A stretch of 64,000 nt of DNA from an uncultured Verrucomicrobiae bacterium (GTDB lineage: Bacteria > Verrucomicrobiota > Verrucomicrobiia > Chthoniobacterales > Terrimicrobiaceae), in contig CAVPOC010000008.1 in assembly GCA_963706955.1 (NCBI GenBank), forward strand, positions 64,001 through 128,000, read 5' to 3'. Made by a program: the position numbers. Shown one piece after another: positions 15,001 through 45,000 of the stretch (the first letter of the stretch is position 1; each line of letters starts with the position of its first letter).

Positions 15001-18000
15001 CCCCTTCCTTGACTCATGATGTTTTGGCCCATGCTCTAGCGCCTGCGCTCATCTTTTCCTCGGTTCTGCGGCGGGCTCCCGAGAACCGCTTTAGATAGCC
15101 CCTCTCCCCGTAAATATGCTGACGATCGTCCGGTAGATCAAGCGGTAACGTAGAGAGGCTCGTCCATCCCGGTTTTTCACAAACGATTGCCGCAAAGCAG
15201 CACGACGGCATCTTAAGAAATGGCTTCGAACGGAAGCCTTTTAGGGACTTCAACTTGCGCAGGAGCCTTTAGAAAGTCCAATCGCTGCTGACTGTACGCC
15301 GCTTGGCGACTCTCCCGCGCCTTCTAACCAACAGAGCACGTTCAGAGCTTGACTCCTTCAAACTTTCTTCCAGCATCGTGAGCGGAATGAAAGCGTCTCG
15401 GCGTTCGCGTGCGCGTGACGCTCGAAAATTGAGTTCTAACGCAGCGACTGAAAGCGCGCAAGGGAGAGGGACGGAGCTGGTGGGGGCTATTGCAGCCGAG
15501 GGCACGGACGCAGCAACAGGGGAGCCACCAGAGCGGTACCAGACAGGTTGGGAGCATCTCTTCGATGAGCTTCGACGCTTGGATTTGCTGATTTCTTGTC
15601 GGCTGCCTAAGCAAGGGGCGGACCCAGGAACAGCGATACCTCTCCAGGAATTCAAGGGTCTGGTGCTGACGGAGGAGGAGATTCGGAGATTGCTAGGCGA
15701 TCCGCTCAACAACTCGCCATCAGAAGCGCATCAAGACACCGATGATTTACCGACGCGGCATCTTCAAGTGGCCCTCGGCCACGTATCCTCCCACATTCAG
15801 GCGCGACGGATCGCGAGCTTGCACGACGGAATCTATTTGCCGTTGCCTTATCTCGCGCAACTCTTCCAGCTGACCGCCTTTGAAGAACAATGTCTCCTCA
15901 TTTGCCTGGCTCCCGAATTGGACCGCAAATACGAGAAACTCTACGCCTACTTGCAGGATGACGTCACGCGCAAGAAACCGAGTGTGGACCTCATCCTGAA
16001 GTTGCTCTGTCAAACGCTGCCCGAGAAGCTCGCAGCTCGCCTGGCCTTCGATCCTAGTTCTCCTCTGATCAGATACCGCCTTTTGCAGATGACCGATGTC
16101 TCATCGGACGGACCATCGCCGTTGATTTCACGCTTCCTGAAACTCGACGACCGGATCGCAAATTTCCTTATTGGCTTCGGGCAAATCCACGCTCGGCTTG
16201 AAATATTTGCCCGGCTTGTCTCCGGGCAGGCGAAGCTCGATGAAGTGCCCGTGAACGAGCAGATCCAGAGCCGTATCCGGAGCGCCATTGACTGGCACTA
16301 CAAGCAGGAACCTTCCCGCCGTGAACCGATCGTCTTCCATTTCAGCGGACCGTATGGTTCCGGGAAGCGTTTGCTCGCGCAGGCCATTTGCGATGAAGTC
16401 AAGTTGCCTGTCTTGCTCGTCGAGTCGGATAGAATGGCGGCCGGGCAGATTCCCTTGGAGGAGGCACTATGGTTACTGGGCCGAGAGGCGGCGCTACAAT
16501 CGGCTGCACTCTGCTTCCAGGATTTTGATTCGCTGCTCGTGGACGATAAACAAGCGCTCCTGGTCAAGTCGCTTCTCGAGGTAACCAAGACCTTTTCTCT
16601 TACTCTCTTTCTTCTCGGCCGTCGAACTTGGAAGCCTCTTGGGCTCCTCAATGATCTCGCCTTCGTCGTCTGCGAGATCCCAATTCCCGACGATGGGATT
16701 AGAAAGAGCCTCTGGAAAGGCCACCTGAACGGACGATCACCGCTCGCGTCTGACGCAGACGCGGGAGCACTTGCCAGCAAATTCCGATTGACGCCGGGCC
16801 AGATCCAGGACGCCTTGGCGGCAGCTGGAAATCTCGCCCGGTGGCGCTCGCCGGAGATTGGCACCCTCACTGCCGAAGATCTTCATGCTGCATGCCGCGC
16901 CCAGTCGGACCCAAAGCTAAACACCCTCGCGCGAAAAGTCCGGCCCGTCCATGGTTGGAAGGACATTGTGCTGCCCGCTGACGCGCTGGCGCAGCTCACC
17001 GAAATGTGCCAGCGAGTCGCGCAAAGTTACCGCGTGCTGGGCGAGTGGGGCTTTGCGTCCAAGCTGTCGACGGGCAGAGGCGTGAACGCCCTGTTTGCAG
17101 GCCCGAGCGGCACAGGCAAGACGATGGCGGCTGGAATTCTCGCCCAGGAGCTCGGACTCGAGCTCTACAAGATCGATCTCTCGCAAGTTGTCAGCAAATA
17201 CATCGGGGAAACCGAAAAGAATCTCGATTCCATTTTCACCGGGGCCGAAAACAGCAATATTATCCTGTTTTTCGACGAGGCCGATGCGCTCTTTGGTAAA
17301 CGCTCCGAAGTTCGTGATTCTCACGATCGCTATGCCAACATCGAGATTTCCTATCTCCTCCAAAAAATGGAGGAGTATGAGGGAGTGGCCATTCTGGCGA
17401 CCAATTTGCGCCAAAATCTCGATGAGGCCTTTGTCCGGCGTTTAGCCTTTTCGATCAATTTCCCATTCCCTGACGAGGGGGACCGGCGCCTTATCTGGTC
17501 CGGCATCTGGCCCGATGGAATGTCTTTCGCCAACAACGTAGATTTCGATCTCCTGGCGCGGCAATTTAAGCTTAGCGGCGGGAATATTAAGAATGTCGCC
17601 CTCGCGGCTGCTTTCCTCGCCGCCGCCGACGGTGGCATCGTCAACATTTCCCACCTGCTTCACGCAGTCCGACGGGAGTTTCAGAAGCTTGGCAAAGTTG
17701 TGACGGAATTCGACCTCCGAGACGCTTCCAGCGAACCGCTAACAAAATAAGCCTATTGCGACTGTGTCCCCTAAGGAAAAAGATTCCCGCGCTGATCGCG
17801 CAATTATAGAGTGGCGACTTTAACTCTCCAGAACTTCGACGAGTTGAGACGACAACGAGCATGATTGACGATCTGAGCCAGACCCTGCGAACCATCTTGA
17901 CCCGAAGCGGCAACGATCCGCTCAAGTCAGCGCAGATTGTCTTTGACCGGCCCGCGGACCCATTCACACCGCAGCAGACGACGGTGGATTTGTTTCTCTA

Positions 18001-42000: not shown

Positions 42001-45000
42001 ATTACGAACCGACCCGGTGGACGATTAAGCCTATGGACGCCCGCGGGGGATGTATTAAACATCACCAGAGCGGGAATGGTCGGCATCGGCACCATCGCGC
42101 CGAGTTTCAACCTCGATGTCGCTGGCTTCGCTCATGCATCGAGCTTCCCGACCTCCTCGGACGCAAGATTCAAGACGAACGTCGCTCAAGTTCGCGGCGT
42201 TCTTGAGAAGCTGAAGCAGGTTCGTGCGGTTTTCTTCGAGTGGAACGAGCATTATCGAACACTCGGCCGTTCAACCGGAAAGCGGGAAATCGGCGTGGTT
42301 GCTCAGGAGATCGAAGCTGTCTTTCCCGAGTTGGTAACCGAGTGGGGTGATAAGAAATACAAGGCACTTGACTACGGCCGCCTGGCCGCAGTCCTACTCG
42401 AAGCGGTCAAGGAACTTGCGGCGCATAGTGAGATCTTGAGCCAACAGGTCCGAGACCTGCAAAAGGCAACCGCACGCAATATGCCAAACTGCTAGTAGTA
42501 ATTTCTCCAGTGTGATAATGCCCGACTGCTATTTTGATTCTCAATAGGACGATTATTGCCTCTACTGAGTAGCAGCTATCGGAATCGACTAAGGTACTTT
42601 ATGCCAATCGATCAAACCTTGCGCGGGCTTGCTCTGGAAATCGACGCATCCAATGACCCGGCCCCAGAAACGCAGCCGGTCCTTGAATATCGCTTCATCG
42701 ATCTTGCCAGCACGCAAACGATTCTCGCTCGCGTCAAAGCAATACCGCTAGCCAGCGGCGGAGGCGAATTGGCCTTTGAAACCAACGCAGGAACCGATAC
42801 CACGACCCCGCGGATGCTTATTGACGATCAAGGCAATGTCGGCATTGGAACGGAGGAACCAGCCGCCAGATTGGAAGTCGCCGGCGACGTCAGATTCAAC
42901 GGCCCGCTCGATATCCAAGGGGCCCTCACCGTAAGTGGCGTCGCCACAATCGGTGGCGATTTAAACGTCGCGGGAAAACTGAACGCAGGCTAGCTTTGCG
43001 GGTGATGCGGCCGAATTGCGCAATGTCACACCAGCAGACGGCTCTGTGACCAATGCGAAACTGGCCCAGGATGCCGCTTCGCTTAGCAGAGTGACCGGCG
43101 GATCGATGGTCGTCAGCGATGGCAGGCTCGGAATCGGAACCGAAAATCCGATCGCGAAGTTGCACATACGGTCAGCCGCTGGTGAAGTCCTCCCGCCACG
43201 CTTAGAGGCTTCGGACGCTACAAGTTTCGCCGCTGGCTGGGACTTTTATCATGAGACCGCAGCGAAAGGTTACGTCGGGGTCCCAAATTCCGCGACGGGG
43301 ATCGCTCCGGGGGAGATGCTGCTCTTCGGGTCGGCGGGAACCAAGCTCTCGCTGTGGGCAGGAGGAAACAGAAGTCTCACCCTGGACACAAACGGCAATG
43401 TCGGCATTGGAACGACTGATCCCGACCGACCTCTCGCTATAACGGCGGTCCGCACATCCCAGGAGTTGATTAGCTTCAAAGATCCGAGTGGTGTCACCAG
43501 ATGGCACATCAACCAAAACTTGGGCGGGTCGTTTGCGGGCTTGAACTTCGTGGAATCACGCGTGGCCGACGGCAGGCTGTTTCTTAAAGCCGGCGGGAAT
43601 GTGGGCATCGGAACAGTCAATCCGGAACGCAAGCTGCAGATTGGCGACGATGTTATTGGTTTGGGTTTCGACCCGGGAACCTCGCCCAATGCAGGTGTCC
43701 TCCGTTTCGGCGACAATACCGGATGGAAATTGCATTTCGGCCGTTCCCGCGAAGCGAGCGGGGGTGCGCTGAATCGCGGGACCGCTGGGTTACTGATGAC
43801 GATTCAGGATAACGGCAACGTCATTGTGAAGGGGTCGGTTCAGGCTCGTAGCTTTCCTACGACGTCCGATGCAAAGTATAAGACCGACATCGCACCTTTA
43901 ACTGGTGTCTTGGCAAAATTGGACAAGTTGCGCGCAATAGTATTTTCGTGGAATGGTCTGCCTGAGTCTCAAGATCACTGCGCGGACCGCAAAGAAATTG
44001 GAGTTATCGCCCAAGAGGTCGAAGCCGTCTTTCCTGAATTAGTGACAACATGGGAGGGGCGCTACAAAGCAGTTGAGTATGGTAGGTTCTCCGCCGTGCT
44101 CCTTGAGGCTGTTAAAGAGTTGAAGGCAAAGGTTGATGCCTTGGCGCAGAGAACTGCACCGTTAGGATCTTGAGCAAAGGACGATTCGATAGATCCAGAG
44201 CCTCAGAACGAACAAATTATGCAACAACAGATCCAATCCAGGATTGCGGTTTTAAAAAGTGAATTCGAGACCGGCCAAACAAAACTCCAGGAACTCGAAC
44301 TGCAACAGTCACGAATCCGCGAAACGCTCTTGCGCATCAGTGGCGCCATCCAGGTCCTCGAGGAGATGCTCGAGTCAAACAAAGCCGAGGAAGAACCGGC
44401 GCCGAACGACTCCGTTCCGGCCGAACCCTCCGCCGTTGGCAAGGGCTGACGCTTTTCACCGAAGCCAAGGCACCATCCGCCGGGCGGTGGGCTCTACCTC
44501 GAAGCTGGACGAGGCGAACTCAAAGCATGCTCGTGCGTTCGAAAACGAACCGGCGACCCAAAGTCAGCGATGGGAAACCCATCTGCGCGCCCAAAGCTTC
44601 GACGTGTCGGTGCTTTGATTATCGTCACTCCTCTGAGTTCTCGGTGGTCAGGATAGCTGGGATCCAACCAAGTTTCTCATCCTCGCAAAGATCCGGCCGA
44701 GAGGACTCGAACTAAGGCCCGCCTCATCGAAACGGTTGGCGTGAGTTCGGCATCAATGAATCTGAGTCATGCAAAACGGTTTTTTGAGAGATATTTCGAC
44801 CACCCTGTCCTCTGATCAAAGGAGAGCTTCTCGTAGGTCTTCCTCACACTGTCGAAAGAGTAATTGGATGTTGGATACCAAAAGGCGAGGCCATGAGAAT
44901 TCTGAACTGCTGGGCCGAGAGCGGCCGAATGGATGCGACTATCGTCAAATGCGGCGATAATTTGATCGCAACTAGCCTTCACATCCTCTGCAGTTGCCGT

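Follow-up and report, generated by a model that had tools for sequence, protein, structure and literature searches.

Background

The closest described relatives of the locus analysed here are extracellular contractile injection systems (eCIS) and R-type tailocins with more than one fibre gene. The parts of the 2026 catalogue of eCIS receptor-binding domains considered here (PMC12923769) give five fibres as the maximum for a locus and 23.4% as the share of multi-fibre loci, count as fibres those genes that carry one of the anchors eBAP1-5, and pair Tail_P2_I baseplates with the shoulder-type anchors eBAP3/5; the string "Verrucomicrob" is absent from the searched part of its supplement text. For R-type tailocins, the sections consulted on kosakonicin and on plant-associated Pseudomonas describe up to three fibre genes (PMC6629978, PMC10598620). 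Here we analyse a 64,000-nucleotide stretch of a metagenome-assembled genome of an uncultured Verrucomicrobiae bacterium from soil (hereafter the window), in which an eCIS core is followed by a primary fibre gene, F0, and by eight fibre genes that open with a different, shared N-terminal module.

Organization of the locus

A complete eCIS core is encoded on the + strand at 15303-31472 (Table 1), as identified with Pfam, in agreement with the first-pass annotation of this DNA as an eCIS locus. The same annotation had placed five DUF4157 genes upstream on the opposite strand, and these were recovered with Pfam, the one at 13721-14563 being a partial domain that covers only profile positions 47-78 of 79. 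Within the core, a 439-aa protein with no match in Pfam or PHROG is, from its position in the eCIS gene order, a candidate tape measure. The start of U1, the second Baseplate_J-like protein, was set to match that of its sister orthologues. The adaptor U2 has 220 homologues, several of them named "phage tail-like protein", and its variable insert is missing in the 265-aa homologues and doubled in those of 465-478 aa. The genes from the core to the array lie on a single strand with intergenic gaps of 38-337 bp, and terminator-like sites do not exceed the shuffled expectation (9 observed, against a mean of 19.3). The core and fibre genes plausibly constitute one operon, and the gene layout suggests that the array and baseplate genes are co-expressed.

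An F0 orthologue directly follows U2 in every sister and distant locus compared. The AF2 model of F0 (pLDDT 81.8) has a low-confidence linker at residues 181-216 and structural matches to the 1358 RBP and to C1q/BclA heads; the tip class of F0 and F7 has the predicted fold of a TNF/C1q-like trimeric head (Z 9.2-9.9).

Table 1. Features of the eCIS locus and its fibre array, in window coordinates
Feature	Position	Strand	Evidence or remarks
eCIS_core (DUF4157) putative effectors (five)	5268-5969, 8759-9928, 10718-11611, 11951-12937, 13721-14563	-	Pfam eCIS_core 1.2e-32 to 4.1e-11
574-aa ORF, no known family	6622-8346		lies among the eCIS_core effector genes (5268..14563, -)
AAA+ ATPase (Afp15-like) with winged-helix domain	15303..17750	+	Pfam WHD 6.2e-62, AAA 7e-32
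Tail cap protein, Pvc16_N and CarboxypepD_reg	17861..18715	+	Pfam Pvc16_N 3e-29
Contractile sheath	18761..20152	+	Pfam Phage_sheath_1, Phage_sheath_1C
Inner tube protein, gp19-type	20191..20619	+	Pfam Phage_T4_gp19 6.3e-45
Small protein, candidate tail assembly chaperone	20633..20998	+	PHROG phrog_508 "tail assembly chaperone" 4.2e-7
439-aa protein, no known family	21151..22470	+	conserved in sister loci at 35-46%
Tube initiator with LysM	22470..23096	+	Pfam CIS_tube 1.9e-27, LysM
VgrG-type spike	23105..24820	+	Pfam Phage_base_V 1.9e-27
PAAR spike tip	24831..25217	+	Pfam PAAR_motif 1.2e-17
gp25-like baseplate wedge protein	25330..25746	+	Pfam GPW_gp25 1.2e-24
Large Baseplate_J protein (Afp11-like)	25746..29285	+	Pfam Baseplate_J 2.3e-21
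U1, second, short Baseplate_J-like protein	29287..30318	+	blastp: Baseplate_J paralogue 28-33%, sister orthologues 57-70%
U2, Tail_P2_I-like baseplate adaptor, variable insert at residues ~58-141	30315..31472	+	Pfam Tail_P2_I E 0.0047, below cut-off
F0, primary fibre: shoulder-like N-terminal domain (~1-180), TNF/C1q-like head (215-342)	31529..32557	+	
F1, module fibre, Peptidase_S74 tip (subtype a)	32609..34039	+	Pfam; orthologues in G396, G405
F2, module fibre, class-A tip; residues 92-130 of the module are duplicated internally	34196..35452	+	blastp
F3, complete 287-aa module fibre, own small tip	35491..36354	+	
Scar, non-coding 3' remnant of a class-A fibre gene	36455..36610	+	inside spurious ORF 36305-36667 (g02404)
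F5, module fibre, class-A tip	36692..38155	+	blastp
F6, module fibre, class-A tip	38347..40086	+	blastp
F7, module fibre, TNF/C1q-like tip, F0 class	40156..41010	+	41% identity to F0 residues 139-342; orthologues 78-79%
F8, module fibre, Peptidase_S74 tip (subtype b)	41068..42495	+	Pfam, blastp
F9/F10, single Peptidase_S74 fibre in two frames	42601..44173	+	one extra base at 42987-42991; orthologues 81-83%
cc76, 76-aa predicted coiled-coil protein closing the array	44219..44449	+	60-86% in sister loci

The fibre array and its shared module

The eight fibre genes that follow F0 lie on the same (+) strand at 32609-44173, and each opens with the same module, so that the gene starts in Table 1 are also the module starts (for F6, the ATG that aligns with the remaining module copies was taken). 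The modules are 68-84% identical in amino acids over 125-190 residues (blastp among the eight fibres, E 1e-60 to 1e-97). A search of the whole genome found eight full copies, all in the window, plus one internal repeat in F2. Both searches uphold the earlier description of eight same-strand fibres with a common N-terminus. Of the 130-190 residues then given to the module, only residues 1 to ~76 are specific to the group; residues ~50-130 constitute a generic fibre repeat, which 72,176 proteins contain, giant surface proteins among them.

The module is carried by 147 proteins in a collection of 5.8 billion; among the 120 matches listed, it stands at residue 1 in every one, with 78-100% identity, in proteins of 268-626 aa whose tips fall into nine clusters. 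A search of 50,697 phage records gave no match to its first 55 residues. The model of the module monomer is poor, with a pLDDT of 58.6 overall that reaches ~80 only at residues 30-80, and its best structural matches (Z at most 6.1, to the T5 fibre) lie under the noise level stated for the tool, so the module fold points to no known anchor. Nor did the module match any of the published anchors eBAP1-5 where these were tested; it has no DUF6519 hit and is not predicted to be helical. Synonymous codon differences exceed non-synonymous ones in 27 of the 28 paralogue module pairs, with one tie.

Beyond the module, four tip classes can be recognized, namely Peptidase_S74 (F1, F8 and F9/F10, with Pfam matches above cut-off in F1, F8 and F10), class A (F2, F5 and F6), the TNF/C1q-like class (F7, together with F0) and the tip peculiar to F3. 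Pfam, blastp and homologue clusters thereby bear out the proposal of at least four unrelated C-terminal classes. PHROG tail-fibre families are matched by all seven intact module-bearing fibres and by F10, in a scan that took in this C-terminal piece and left out the module-bearing piece F9, and the identification of the eight downstream genes as fibres is supported. F3 (g02403), earlier regarded as a singleton, proved to be a complete fibre with 17 homologues of the same length in the protein collection, all of 287 aa, and its tip is 86% identical to that of a solitary fibre in a sister species (G286). The adjoining g02404, formerly read as a fragment of a fibre gene, is no gene at all: a tip swap has left behind F3 the 3' scar of an A-class fibre, which is 77% identical (tblastn) to the final 70 residues of F2 and lies in a frame that differs from that of F3.

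The frameshift separating F9 from F10 (g02409/g02410) is probably an assembly chimera. Contigs from two of four sequencing runs span the site, and both are one base shorter, which restores the frame; they are of low depth (4.6x and 5.2x), and since a low-depth contig, from run X6, shows a one-base deletion elsewhere, at 41312 in F8, the in-frame reading of F9/F10 depends on these two. As neither of the two independent contigs spanning the site has the frameshift, the first-pass concern that only seven fibres might be intact is probably unfounded, and all eight module fibres are probably intact, making nine fibre genes with F0. That lone frameshift also resembles a two-allele hybrid, and genome completeness is 92.5% and contamination 2.9%, as might be expected if strain mixture in the metagenome-assembled genome had inflated the copy number. 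Such an artefact is extremely improbable, given that the paralogue modules differ by 13-27% in DNA and carry different tips, that seven copies have distinct orthologues in other genomes, and that environmental contigs from four runs in four studies span nearly all of the array (21-29 of 30 bins at at least 95% identity) with no rearranged or alternative joints.

Distribution and evolution of the array

Arrays of 2-8 module genes occur in seven of 19 genomes of the genus, and only alongside this eCIS; U2 is likewise present in seven of the 19, all of which carry module fibres. Array sizes of 8, 6+1, 6, 5, 4+3 and 2 across the sister species confirm that the array varies between species, and the module profile again detects four of 401 genomes in a sample of the order, all from this genus, as reported before. 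The order baseplate-U1-U2-F0-array-cc76 is retained in the four sisters with full loci (G396, G405, G266 and G286), with cc76 directly after the last fibre at 60-86% identity; in G396, G405 and G286, cc76 is in turn followed by DUF4157 effectors. G407 has U2, F0 and five module fibres, and a short contig of G401 has U2, F0 and one module. Solitary module fibres outside the locus (one in G396, three in G286) show that such genes can persist at a distance from the baseplate genes. These orphan copies in two sister genomes, like the generic shaft repeat shared with giant surface proteins, would suit an array of independent adhesins or prophage tail-fibre leftovers that merely adjoins the eCIS. 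We consider this very unlikely in view of the position of the array between F0 and cc76 in all four sisters, with effectors beyond it in three, the restriction of the module family to genomes having this eCIS, and the lack of phage matches for its first 55 residues.

Full-length orthologues of F1, F2, F5, F6, F7 and F9/F10 were found in both sisters compared and of F8 in one, with 68-83% identity beyond residue 130. The fibres are under purifying selection, dN/dS being 0.13-0.25 (NG86) in the ten orthologue pairs tested. The clear tip-replacement scar behind F3, the differences in gene order between species and a module history discordant with that of the tips could alternatively be taken to mean that one or a few genes are expressed and that the rest serve as a reservoir of tips recombined through the shared module. 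This seems quite improbable, since every copy has its own ATG and a full-length open frame, a conserved stretch of ~10 nt precedes five of the eight starts, silent cassettes would not keep such dN/dS values, the flanking ORFs scanned include no invertase or recombinase, and the contigs of the four runs yielded no rearranged joints.

In support of gene conversion, seven of the eight modules of this genome (G000) group together in a DNA tree. AU tests reject a grouping of modules by orthologous tips (p 0.0017 for the TNF class, 0.0005 for S74 subtype a), and do not reject the last copy, F9, as a positional orthologue (p 0.195). The five modules of G407 are mutually 97-100% identical; the signal of gene conversion is weaker in G000, where DNA identity among the paralogue modules is no more than 73-87%, and part of their clustering could stem from duplication within the lineage combined with tip exchange. 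The array probably evolves by gene duplication and gene loss, by changes in gene order, by replacement of tip cassettes, the source of the scar at 36455-36610, and by gene conversion that would keep the module uniform within a genome.

A model of the particle

The best explanation of these observations, which we hold with moderate confidence, is a single eCIS with two kinds of fibre, F0 and the eight module fibres. F0 would be the ancestral fibre, its shoulder-type N-terminal domain most likely docking on U2 as in related systems. Each module fibre consists of the ~76-residue β-sheet module, a generic trimeric shaft and one of the four tip types, and the module would be the shared means of attachment to a single conserved site of the particle. 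The eight genes would be transcribed together with those of the baseplate, their products may form homotrimers that compete for or share that site, and particles would then display mixed receptor-binding tips. If so, one chassis with mixed tips would reach a wider range of target cells.

Alternatively, the module fibres might dock on F0 or on each other, as in phages with multi-tailspike adaptors, to give a hyperbranched particle. F0 always lies directly upstream of the array and has the low-confidence linker noted above; its residues 139-190 are homologous to residues 77-130 of the module fibres (blastp), and F7 has its head, so that related kinds could stack. Across the sister species, however, the F0 N-terminal domain is 44-53% identical, against 66-87% for the module, which is unusual for tightly co-evolving partners, and a profile comparison of the two N-termini found no similarity between shoulder domain and module. 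A branched arrangement appears unlikely.

Comparison with known systems

As in the multi-fibre eCIS of the catalogue sections considered, the fibres are encoded after Baseplate_J, gp25 and Tail_P2_I and combine a conserved N-terminus with variable C-terminal binding domains; the present locus differs in having one shoulder-type F0 plus eight fibres with a different, much shorter β-sheet module. The first-pass annotation quoted the maximum of five and the share of 23.4% correctly, but its claim of a record is not a like-for-like comparison, because the catalogue counted eBAP-bearing fibres only and would probably have recorded a single fibre, F0, here. As the module is not an eBAP where tested, similar arrays elsewhere would be missed by that method. 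In the distant Tail_P2_I eCIS loci L022, L030 and L031, the adaptor is followed by two to four consecutive fibres, each of which has the N-terminal motif of the F0 type; such paralogues reuse the primary anchor, whereas the extra fibres of this genus rely on a second module unrelated to it.

The fibres of Bdellovibrio bacteriovorus form a family whose tips are diverse within a single genome, and they serve the predator's own surface and not an injection particle. Those of its fibre chains whose C-terminal domains are solved (PDB: 8oml, 8on4, 8ond, 8ojn) have the generic shaft repeat in common with the module fibres (F5 residues 54-100, E 1.2e-7; structural matches, Z 4.4-5.0), the match excluding the first ~50 residues. 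R-type tailocins, in the parts of the reports cited above, resemble this locus in having more than one fibre gene per phage-tail-like cluster, with a proposed wider target range, and in fibre diversification through duplication and recombination; they kill by depolarisation and lack the AAA ATPase, the Pvc16 cap and DUF4157 cargo, all three of which are encoded here. Finally, branched-adaptor phages such as the Klebsiella jumbo phage phiKp24, as far as the descriptions consulted go, equip a single contractile tail with many different fibres or spikes that cover many hosts, but are virions with dedicated adaptor domains for attachment, the likeness being one of description and not of compared anchors. 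Eight fibres with one front end and four kinds of tip suggest one machine that could be aimed at many targets.

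Gene content of the locus

The first-pass annotation had described an extracellular contractile injection system (eCIS), and this is borne out by a complete core on the forward strand, with an eCIS-specific AAA+ ATPase (AAA, 7e-32; WHD, 6.2e-62) and a Pvc16_N cap protein (3e-29), both matched above the curated Pfam cut-offs, and by DUF4157 cargo. The sheath, a gp19-type tube protein, a CIS_tube protein with LysM, the VgrG spike, PAAR, gp25 and a Baseplate_J protein of 1179 aa, likewise matched above the cut-offs, lie in one putative operon. Five eCIS_core (DUF4157) cargo genes (1.2e-32 to 4.1e-11, one with a partial domain) stand upstream on the opposite strand, and DUF4157 genes also adjoin the sister loci. 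The Pfam scan, which took in 39 ORFs, turned up no genes for a T6SS membrane complex, phage heads or phage replication. By its gene content, the locus encodes an Afp/PVC-like eCIS chassis, whose release as particles and action on other cells are predicted.

Coordinates of the features of the locus, counted along the window
Feature	Position	Strand	Description
Fifth eCIS_core gene	13721-14563	-	match to profile positions 47-78 of 79 only, at the extreme N-terminus
eCIS core	15303-31472	+	complete
Sheath to Baseplate_J	18761-29285	+	one putative operon
U1	29287-30318	+	short paralogue of Baseplate_J
U2	30315-31472	+	Tail_P2_I match below cut-off
F0	31529-32557	+	primary fibre, directly after U2 and before the array; TNF/C1q-like tip
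F1	start 32609	+	module fibre; Peptidase_S74 tip (6.1e-14)
F2	start 34196	+	module fibre; class-A tip
F3	start 35491	+	module fibre; own tip type
ORF g02404	36305-36667		class-A homology at 36455-36610
F5	start 36692	+	module fibre; class-A tip
F6	start 38347	+	module fibre; class-A tip
F7	start 40156	+	module fibre; TNF/C1q-like tip
F8	start 41068	+	module fibre; Peptidase_S74 tip (4.2e-14)
F9/F10	start 42601	+	module fibre (g02409/g02410); Peptidase_S74 tip in F10 (2.2e-15)
cc76	44219-44449	+	76-aa predicted coiled coil directly after the last fibre
Peptidase_C11 gene	44767-46008	-	clostripain family; converges on the locus end

The fifth eCIS_core gene may have suffered a 5' truncation or carry a wrongly called start. 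The Peptidase_C11 gene has no tblastn match in the sister loci L001-L013. In the related genome G396, an ORF (L001:8085-9071) lies between cc76 and a DUF4157 effector gene; its N-terminus is presumably transposase-like.

The primary fibre and the adjoining baseplate genes

The AF2 model of F0 (pLDDT 81.8) aligns over residues 25-342 to the receptor-binding protein of lactococcal phage 1358 (Foldseek prob 1.00, E 1.1e-5; VIA Z 9.2), and over residues 21-187 to the baseplate fibre of the Haloferax virus HFTV1 (Z 7.8). Its C-terminal head, residues 215-342, superimposes on those of Pgp3, EDA-A1, F-BclA, C1q and BclA with Z 9.4-9.9 (9.9 for 4jdn, 9.6 for 9h38, 9.4 for 6z6v and 1wck; rmsd 2.5-3.3 over 111-113 residues), and matches the C1q-family heads with a Foldseek prob of 1.00. 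The F0 family profile has no match among PDB sequences at E up to 1. The published eCIS catalogue (PMC12923769) describes one of its fibre anchors, eBAP3, as 'shoulders-like', and the modelled N-terminus of F0 is compatible with this description; among the structural matches listed for F0, the tCIS crown chain that this source mentions does not occur.

The link of U2 to Tail_P2_I falls short of the Pfam cut-off (E 0.0047, 17.3 bits against 20.6), and several of its 220 homologues bear the name 'phage tail-like protein'. Its residues ~58-141 form a lineage-variable insert, which is missing in homologues of ~265 aa, and doubled in those of 465-478 aa (among them the orthologues in the related genomes G266 and G286); homologues of 576-585 aa have a Laminin_G_3-bearing region in its place. 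Searching F0, U1, U2, F3, F5, F7 and two unassigned core proteins against Pfam at E up to 5 gave sub-threshold noise only.

The fibre array and its tips

An all-against-all blastp comparison confirms the annotated tandem of eight fibres with a common N-terminus: their first 125-190 residues are 68-84% identical (E 1e-60 to 1e-97), and the whole 4.16-Mb assembly holds eight full copies of this module, all within the window. Such a sharing of eight starts exceeds chance by far. All genes of the array lie on the same strand with gaps of 38-337 bp, and between 29000 and 46500 neither terminator-like sites (9, against a shuffled mean of 19.3) nor promoter-like sites (7, against 7.8) occur in excess. 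A shufflon or other invertible tip system is rejected in view of the co-orientation of the genes, each with its own start, and also of the absence of a recombinase among the scanned ORFs and of joints in the contigs. F2 holds one internal repeat of module residues 92-130.

At least four C-terminal classes had been claimed, and the locus indeed contains four types of tip. The Peptidase_S74 matches of F1, F8 and F10 all exceed the 22-bit Pfam cut-off. The class-A tip has a single family match, PHROG phrog_17490 of unknown function; its atlas look-alikes, scoring 0.95-0.97, are clusters without names, mostly viral, and offer a lead only. The TNF/C1q-like jelly-roll tip is shared with F0, that of F7 being assigned by its 41-48% identity to the F0 tip. 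A resemblance of the F3 tip to an H-type lectin finds no support in any search here; the best atlas look-alike of this tip (0.82) is at chance level, and the AF2 model of F3, built from a mixed alignment, has pLDDT below 50 for tip residues 185-258. When the last 120 residues of 120 listed proteins from a wider collection of module bearers were clustered together with nine window proteins, the clusters had 47 (class A), 35 (S74), 20 (TNF), 18 (F3 type), 4, 2, 1, 1 and 1 members.

Two genes of doubtful integrity were also considered. F3 is complete, all 17 proteins of the collection with an F3-type tip being 287 aa long. The ORF g02404, previously taken for a fibre fragment, is not a gene, but it does include a class-A remnant: the one part with any homology, 36455-36610, corresponds to the end of a class-A fibre (the final ~50 residues, 77% to F2), in another frame than F3 and ~100 bp beyond the F3 stop codon. 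This stretch is a scar, left when a former class-A gene had its tip replaced. The idea that F3 and g02404 are one frameshifted class-A fibre is excluded, as F3 ends in its own tip, found in the 17 proteins of 287 aa, and the scar begins only ~100 bp downstream of its stop.

F9/F10 is a single S74 fibre in two frames, split by one extra base at 42987-42991. Of contigs from four runs, belonging to four different studies, those of two runs cover the site (depth 4.6 and 5.2); in one a base is missing at 42987, in the second at 42991, and each reading is in frame and agrees with the paralogue sequence. Since the sequence of the window at this site resembles a hybrid of these two in-frame alleles, the frameshift is taken to be an assembly chimera. 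The earlier notice of a split was thus right that this is one fibre, frameshifted in the assembly, but the accompanying worry that only seven fibres are intact is probably wrong; the eight module fibres are probably all intact, giving nine fibre genes with F0. The hybrid-like reading at 42985-42994 also hints at a strain mixture in the genome consensus. In a contig of run X6 (depth 4.7), one of the runs covering the break, a base is missing inside F8 at 41312, reflecting either a strain with a broken F8 or a contig error.

The shared N-terminal module

The module had been described as extending over 130-190 residues; the identity is real, but only its beginning is specific. A search with residues 1-130 against 1.84 billion representative proteins returned 72,176 matches, and the best 150 of these include 142 proteins 1,788-7,920 aa long, each with 11-60 stretches resembling residues ~30-130, the other eight matching residues 1-130 at their own N-terminus. 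This query, swamped by repeats, gives no count of true module bearers, and residues 1-55 were used for that instead. With the same 130-residue query, 30 of the 401 genomes of an order-level sample had matches; only in the genome studied (G000), G396, G266 and G286 did these start within the first ~21 residues of the query, in three of the four from residue 1. By these match patterns, residues ~50-130 form a fibre-shaft repeat of a generic kind, which also matches solved Bdellovibrio fibre chains (E 1.2e-7) and PHROG tail-fibre families. The group-specific part is residues 1 to ~76 only.

The search with residues 1-55 retrieved 147 proteins; in all 120 of those listed the segment begins at residue 1 with 78-100% identity, in proteins of 268-626 aa, and it has no match in 50,697 phage records. 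Three homologous variants of the module are recognizable, with 33-41% identity to each other. The AF2 model places a small beta-sheet at residues 28-82 (pLDDT ~80 there, 58.6 overall), with strands at 28-33, 39-49, 55-61, 69-74 and 80-82, no helix of four or more residues in 1-100, and local confidence of 46-83. Its best fold matches, the T5 L-shaped fibre (Z 6.1) and other fibre shafts, are below the tool's informative level. The model shows no likeness to the bundled alpha-helical domain of ~50 residues of eBAP1 and eBAP2; and DUF6519 (PF20129), the mark of eBAP5, was not found in F3, F5, F7 or F0 at E up to 5. The module-specific part has ~76 residues, the shoulders-like eBAP3/eBAP4 domain ~200. 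An hhalign comparison of the F0 family with the module fibres found their N-termini unrelated and only a messy C-terminal alignment.

Relatives and evolution of the array

The layout of core, U1, U2, F0, array and cc76 recurs in the genus, with DUF4157 genes after cc76 in G396, G405 and G286. As had been suggested, array size varies between species, from 2 to 8 module fibres across six genomes; likewise, the restriction of the module to one genus within the order sample holds, its profile being found in 4 of 401 genomes, all of this genus. U2 occurs in 7 of the 19 genus genomes (G403 and G407 being counted as one, as their contig number and coordinates adjoin), each of which also has module fibres, and in the remaining 12 the queries used found nothing (the module profile covered nine of them). 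In the seventh, G401, a 4-kb contig carries U2, F0 and one module, a fragment that does not give an array size.

Module fibres in six genomes of the genus
Genome	In array	Elsewhere in genome
G000	8	none
G396	6	1
G405	6	none found
G407	5	none found
G286	4	3
G266	2	none found

The first array gene of G286 appears to be interrupted. The copies outside the arrays are solitary fibres far from the eCIS locus (L003:9272-10513, L008:10097-11665, L009:9867-11066 and L010:9736-10815); that of G396 is the best match of F2, and one of the three in G286 has an F3-type tip (86% identity).

Tip orthologues, compared beyond residue 130 only, indicate that at least seven members of the array predate the split of G000, G396 and G405. 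Since that split the order has been reshuffled, the G000 genes running 2, solo, new, 1, 4, 5, 3, 6 in G396 numbering. NG86 dN/dS ratios of 0.13-0.25 in ten G000 pairs point to purifying selection keeping each fibre.

Identity of module fibres to their orthologues beyond residue 130
Fibre	G396	G405
F1	68%	69%
F2	68% (solitary copy)	81%
F3	none	none
F5	79%	81%
F6	73%	82%
F7	78%	79%
F8	82%	no orthologue
F10	81%	83%

The modules themselves have a different history from the tips. A DNA tree built from 24 modules joins seven of the eight G000 copies and the G401 copy into one group (support 85/77), and it pairs the two G266 copies (99/97). AU tests reject uniting the modules of orthologous TNF fibres (p 0.0017) or S74a fibres (p 0.0005) and do not reject uniting those of last-position fibres (p 0.195), the tests being weakened in that the groups were named after the tree was seen. 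The five modules of G407 are 97-100% identical to each other; those of G000 are 73-87% identical in DNA, and of their 28 pairs 27 have more synonymous than non-synonymous codon differences, one being a tie. Taken together, these data argue for gene conversion and purifying selection acting on the module. The G407 array (L017:12592-21211, on G407:C38) consists of five tandem fibres with the third module variant, their first 70 residues being 97-100% identical, a homogenisation much stronger than in the window.

Beyond the closest U2-profile loci, which belong by their records to uncultured Verrucomicrobiae and Terrimicrobiaceae, others are recorded from Actinomycetota, a Methanosarcinales archaeon, Geobacter, Solibacteraceae, Clostridiales and Blastocatellia. 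Eight distant loci (L020, L021, L023-L028) have just one fibre behind U2, carrying the F0-type N-terminal motif, and L022, L030 and L031 have two to four such fibres in tandem; the module is absent from all eleven. In this eCIS type F0 therefore represents the ancestral fibre, to which the genus added the module array.

Proposed working

The locus combines one chassis, one primary fibre and eight secondary fibres with four tip types on one strand. We consider it somewhat probable that the module would act as a shared attachment part, fitting all secondary fibres to one conserved site on the particle, that these fibres would be co-expressed, and that each particle would carry a mixture of tips. 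The main competing explanation, which seems unlikely, places the dock of the module on F0 instead of the baseplate. F0 diverges between species much faster than the secondary fibres (54-55% identity to its sister orthologues and dN 0.36-0.37, against 75-81% and 0.11-0.16). For attachment to a conserved site, the insert of U2 is, speculatively, a candidate dock, and its length does not follow array size. The small protein cc76 is kept in its post-array position in G396, G405, G286 and G266 (60-86% identity), belongs to no Pfam or PHROG family, and may serve in the assembly of the fibres or have another accessory role in the eCIS.

A more far-reaching interpretation, which we put forward tentatively, joins these elements: the module might be a sixth, hitherto undescribed class of eCIS anchor with a second docking site, mixed display, upkeep by gene conversion and a wider occurrence. 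One chassis would then show a shoulder fibre and up to eight secondary fibres, with nine receptor-binding specificities, and gene conversion would keep all secondary fibres compatible with a single site but leave their tips open to free exchange. As only eBAP1-5 were searched for, secondary arrays would be invisible to the catalogue and may occur in other phyla.

Fibres set the targets of eCIS particles, which are being re-aimed as tools for protein delivery. A single short N-terminal piece here carries at least nine tip clusters over 147 proteins, four of them in one eight-gene locus, and would serve as a ready-made adaptor for exchanging binding domains. The comparative data further record how such an array evolves, through reshuffling, loss, movement to orphan sites, tip replacement and homogenisation of the module.

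Comparison with known systems

R-tailocins are reported with up to three fibres per cluster (PMC6629978; PMC10598620) and eCIS with up to five per locus (PMC12923769), in comparison with the 8+1 fibre genes of the present locus. This number suggests that soil Verrucomicrobia produce particles whose range of targets is far broader, or more bet-hedged, than the known one to five fibres would give. The excess over the five-fibre maximum noted in the first-pass annotation thus holds numerically, but the counting differs, the catalogue having counted only genes with eBAP1-5 (PMC12923769), and 'record' here means above any count found in print and not a demonstrated maximum. On this basis the catalogue would probably score the present locus as single-fibre and miss similar arrays; catalogues keyed to known anchor domains undercount fibres. 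PMC8213781 gives in its Table 1 an eCIS-associated toxin of the verrucomicrobium Ca. Udaeobacter copiosus with the remark 'no afp13 in operon', and states that eCIS operons with Peptidase_S74 genes had no annotated fibres. New in the present locus are a second, short putative module for anchoring and a fibre array larger than any so far described in an eCIS.
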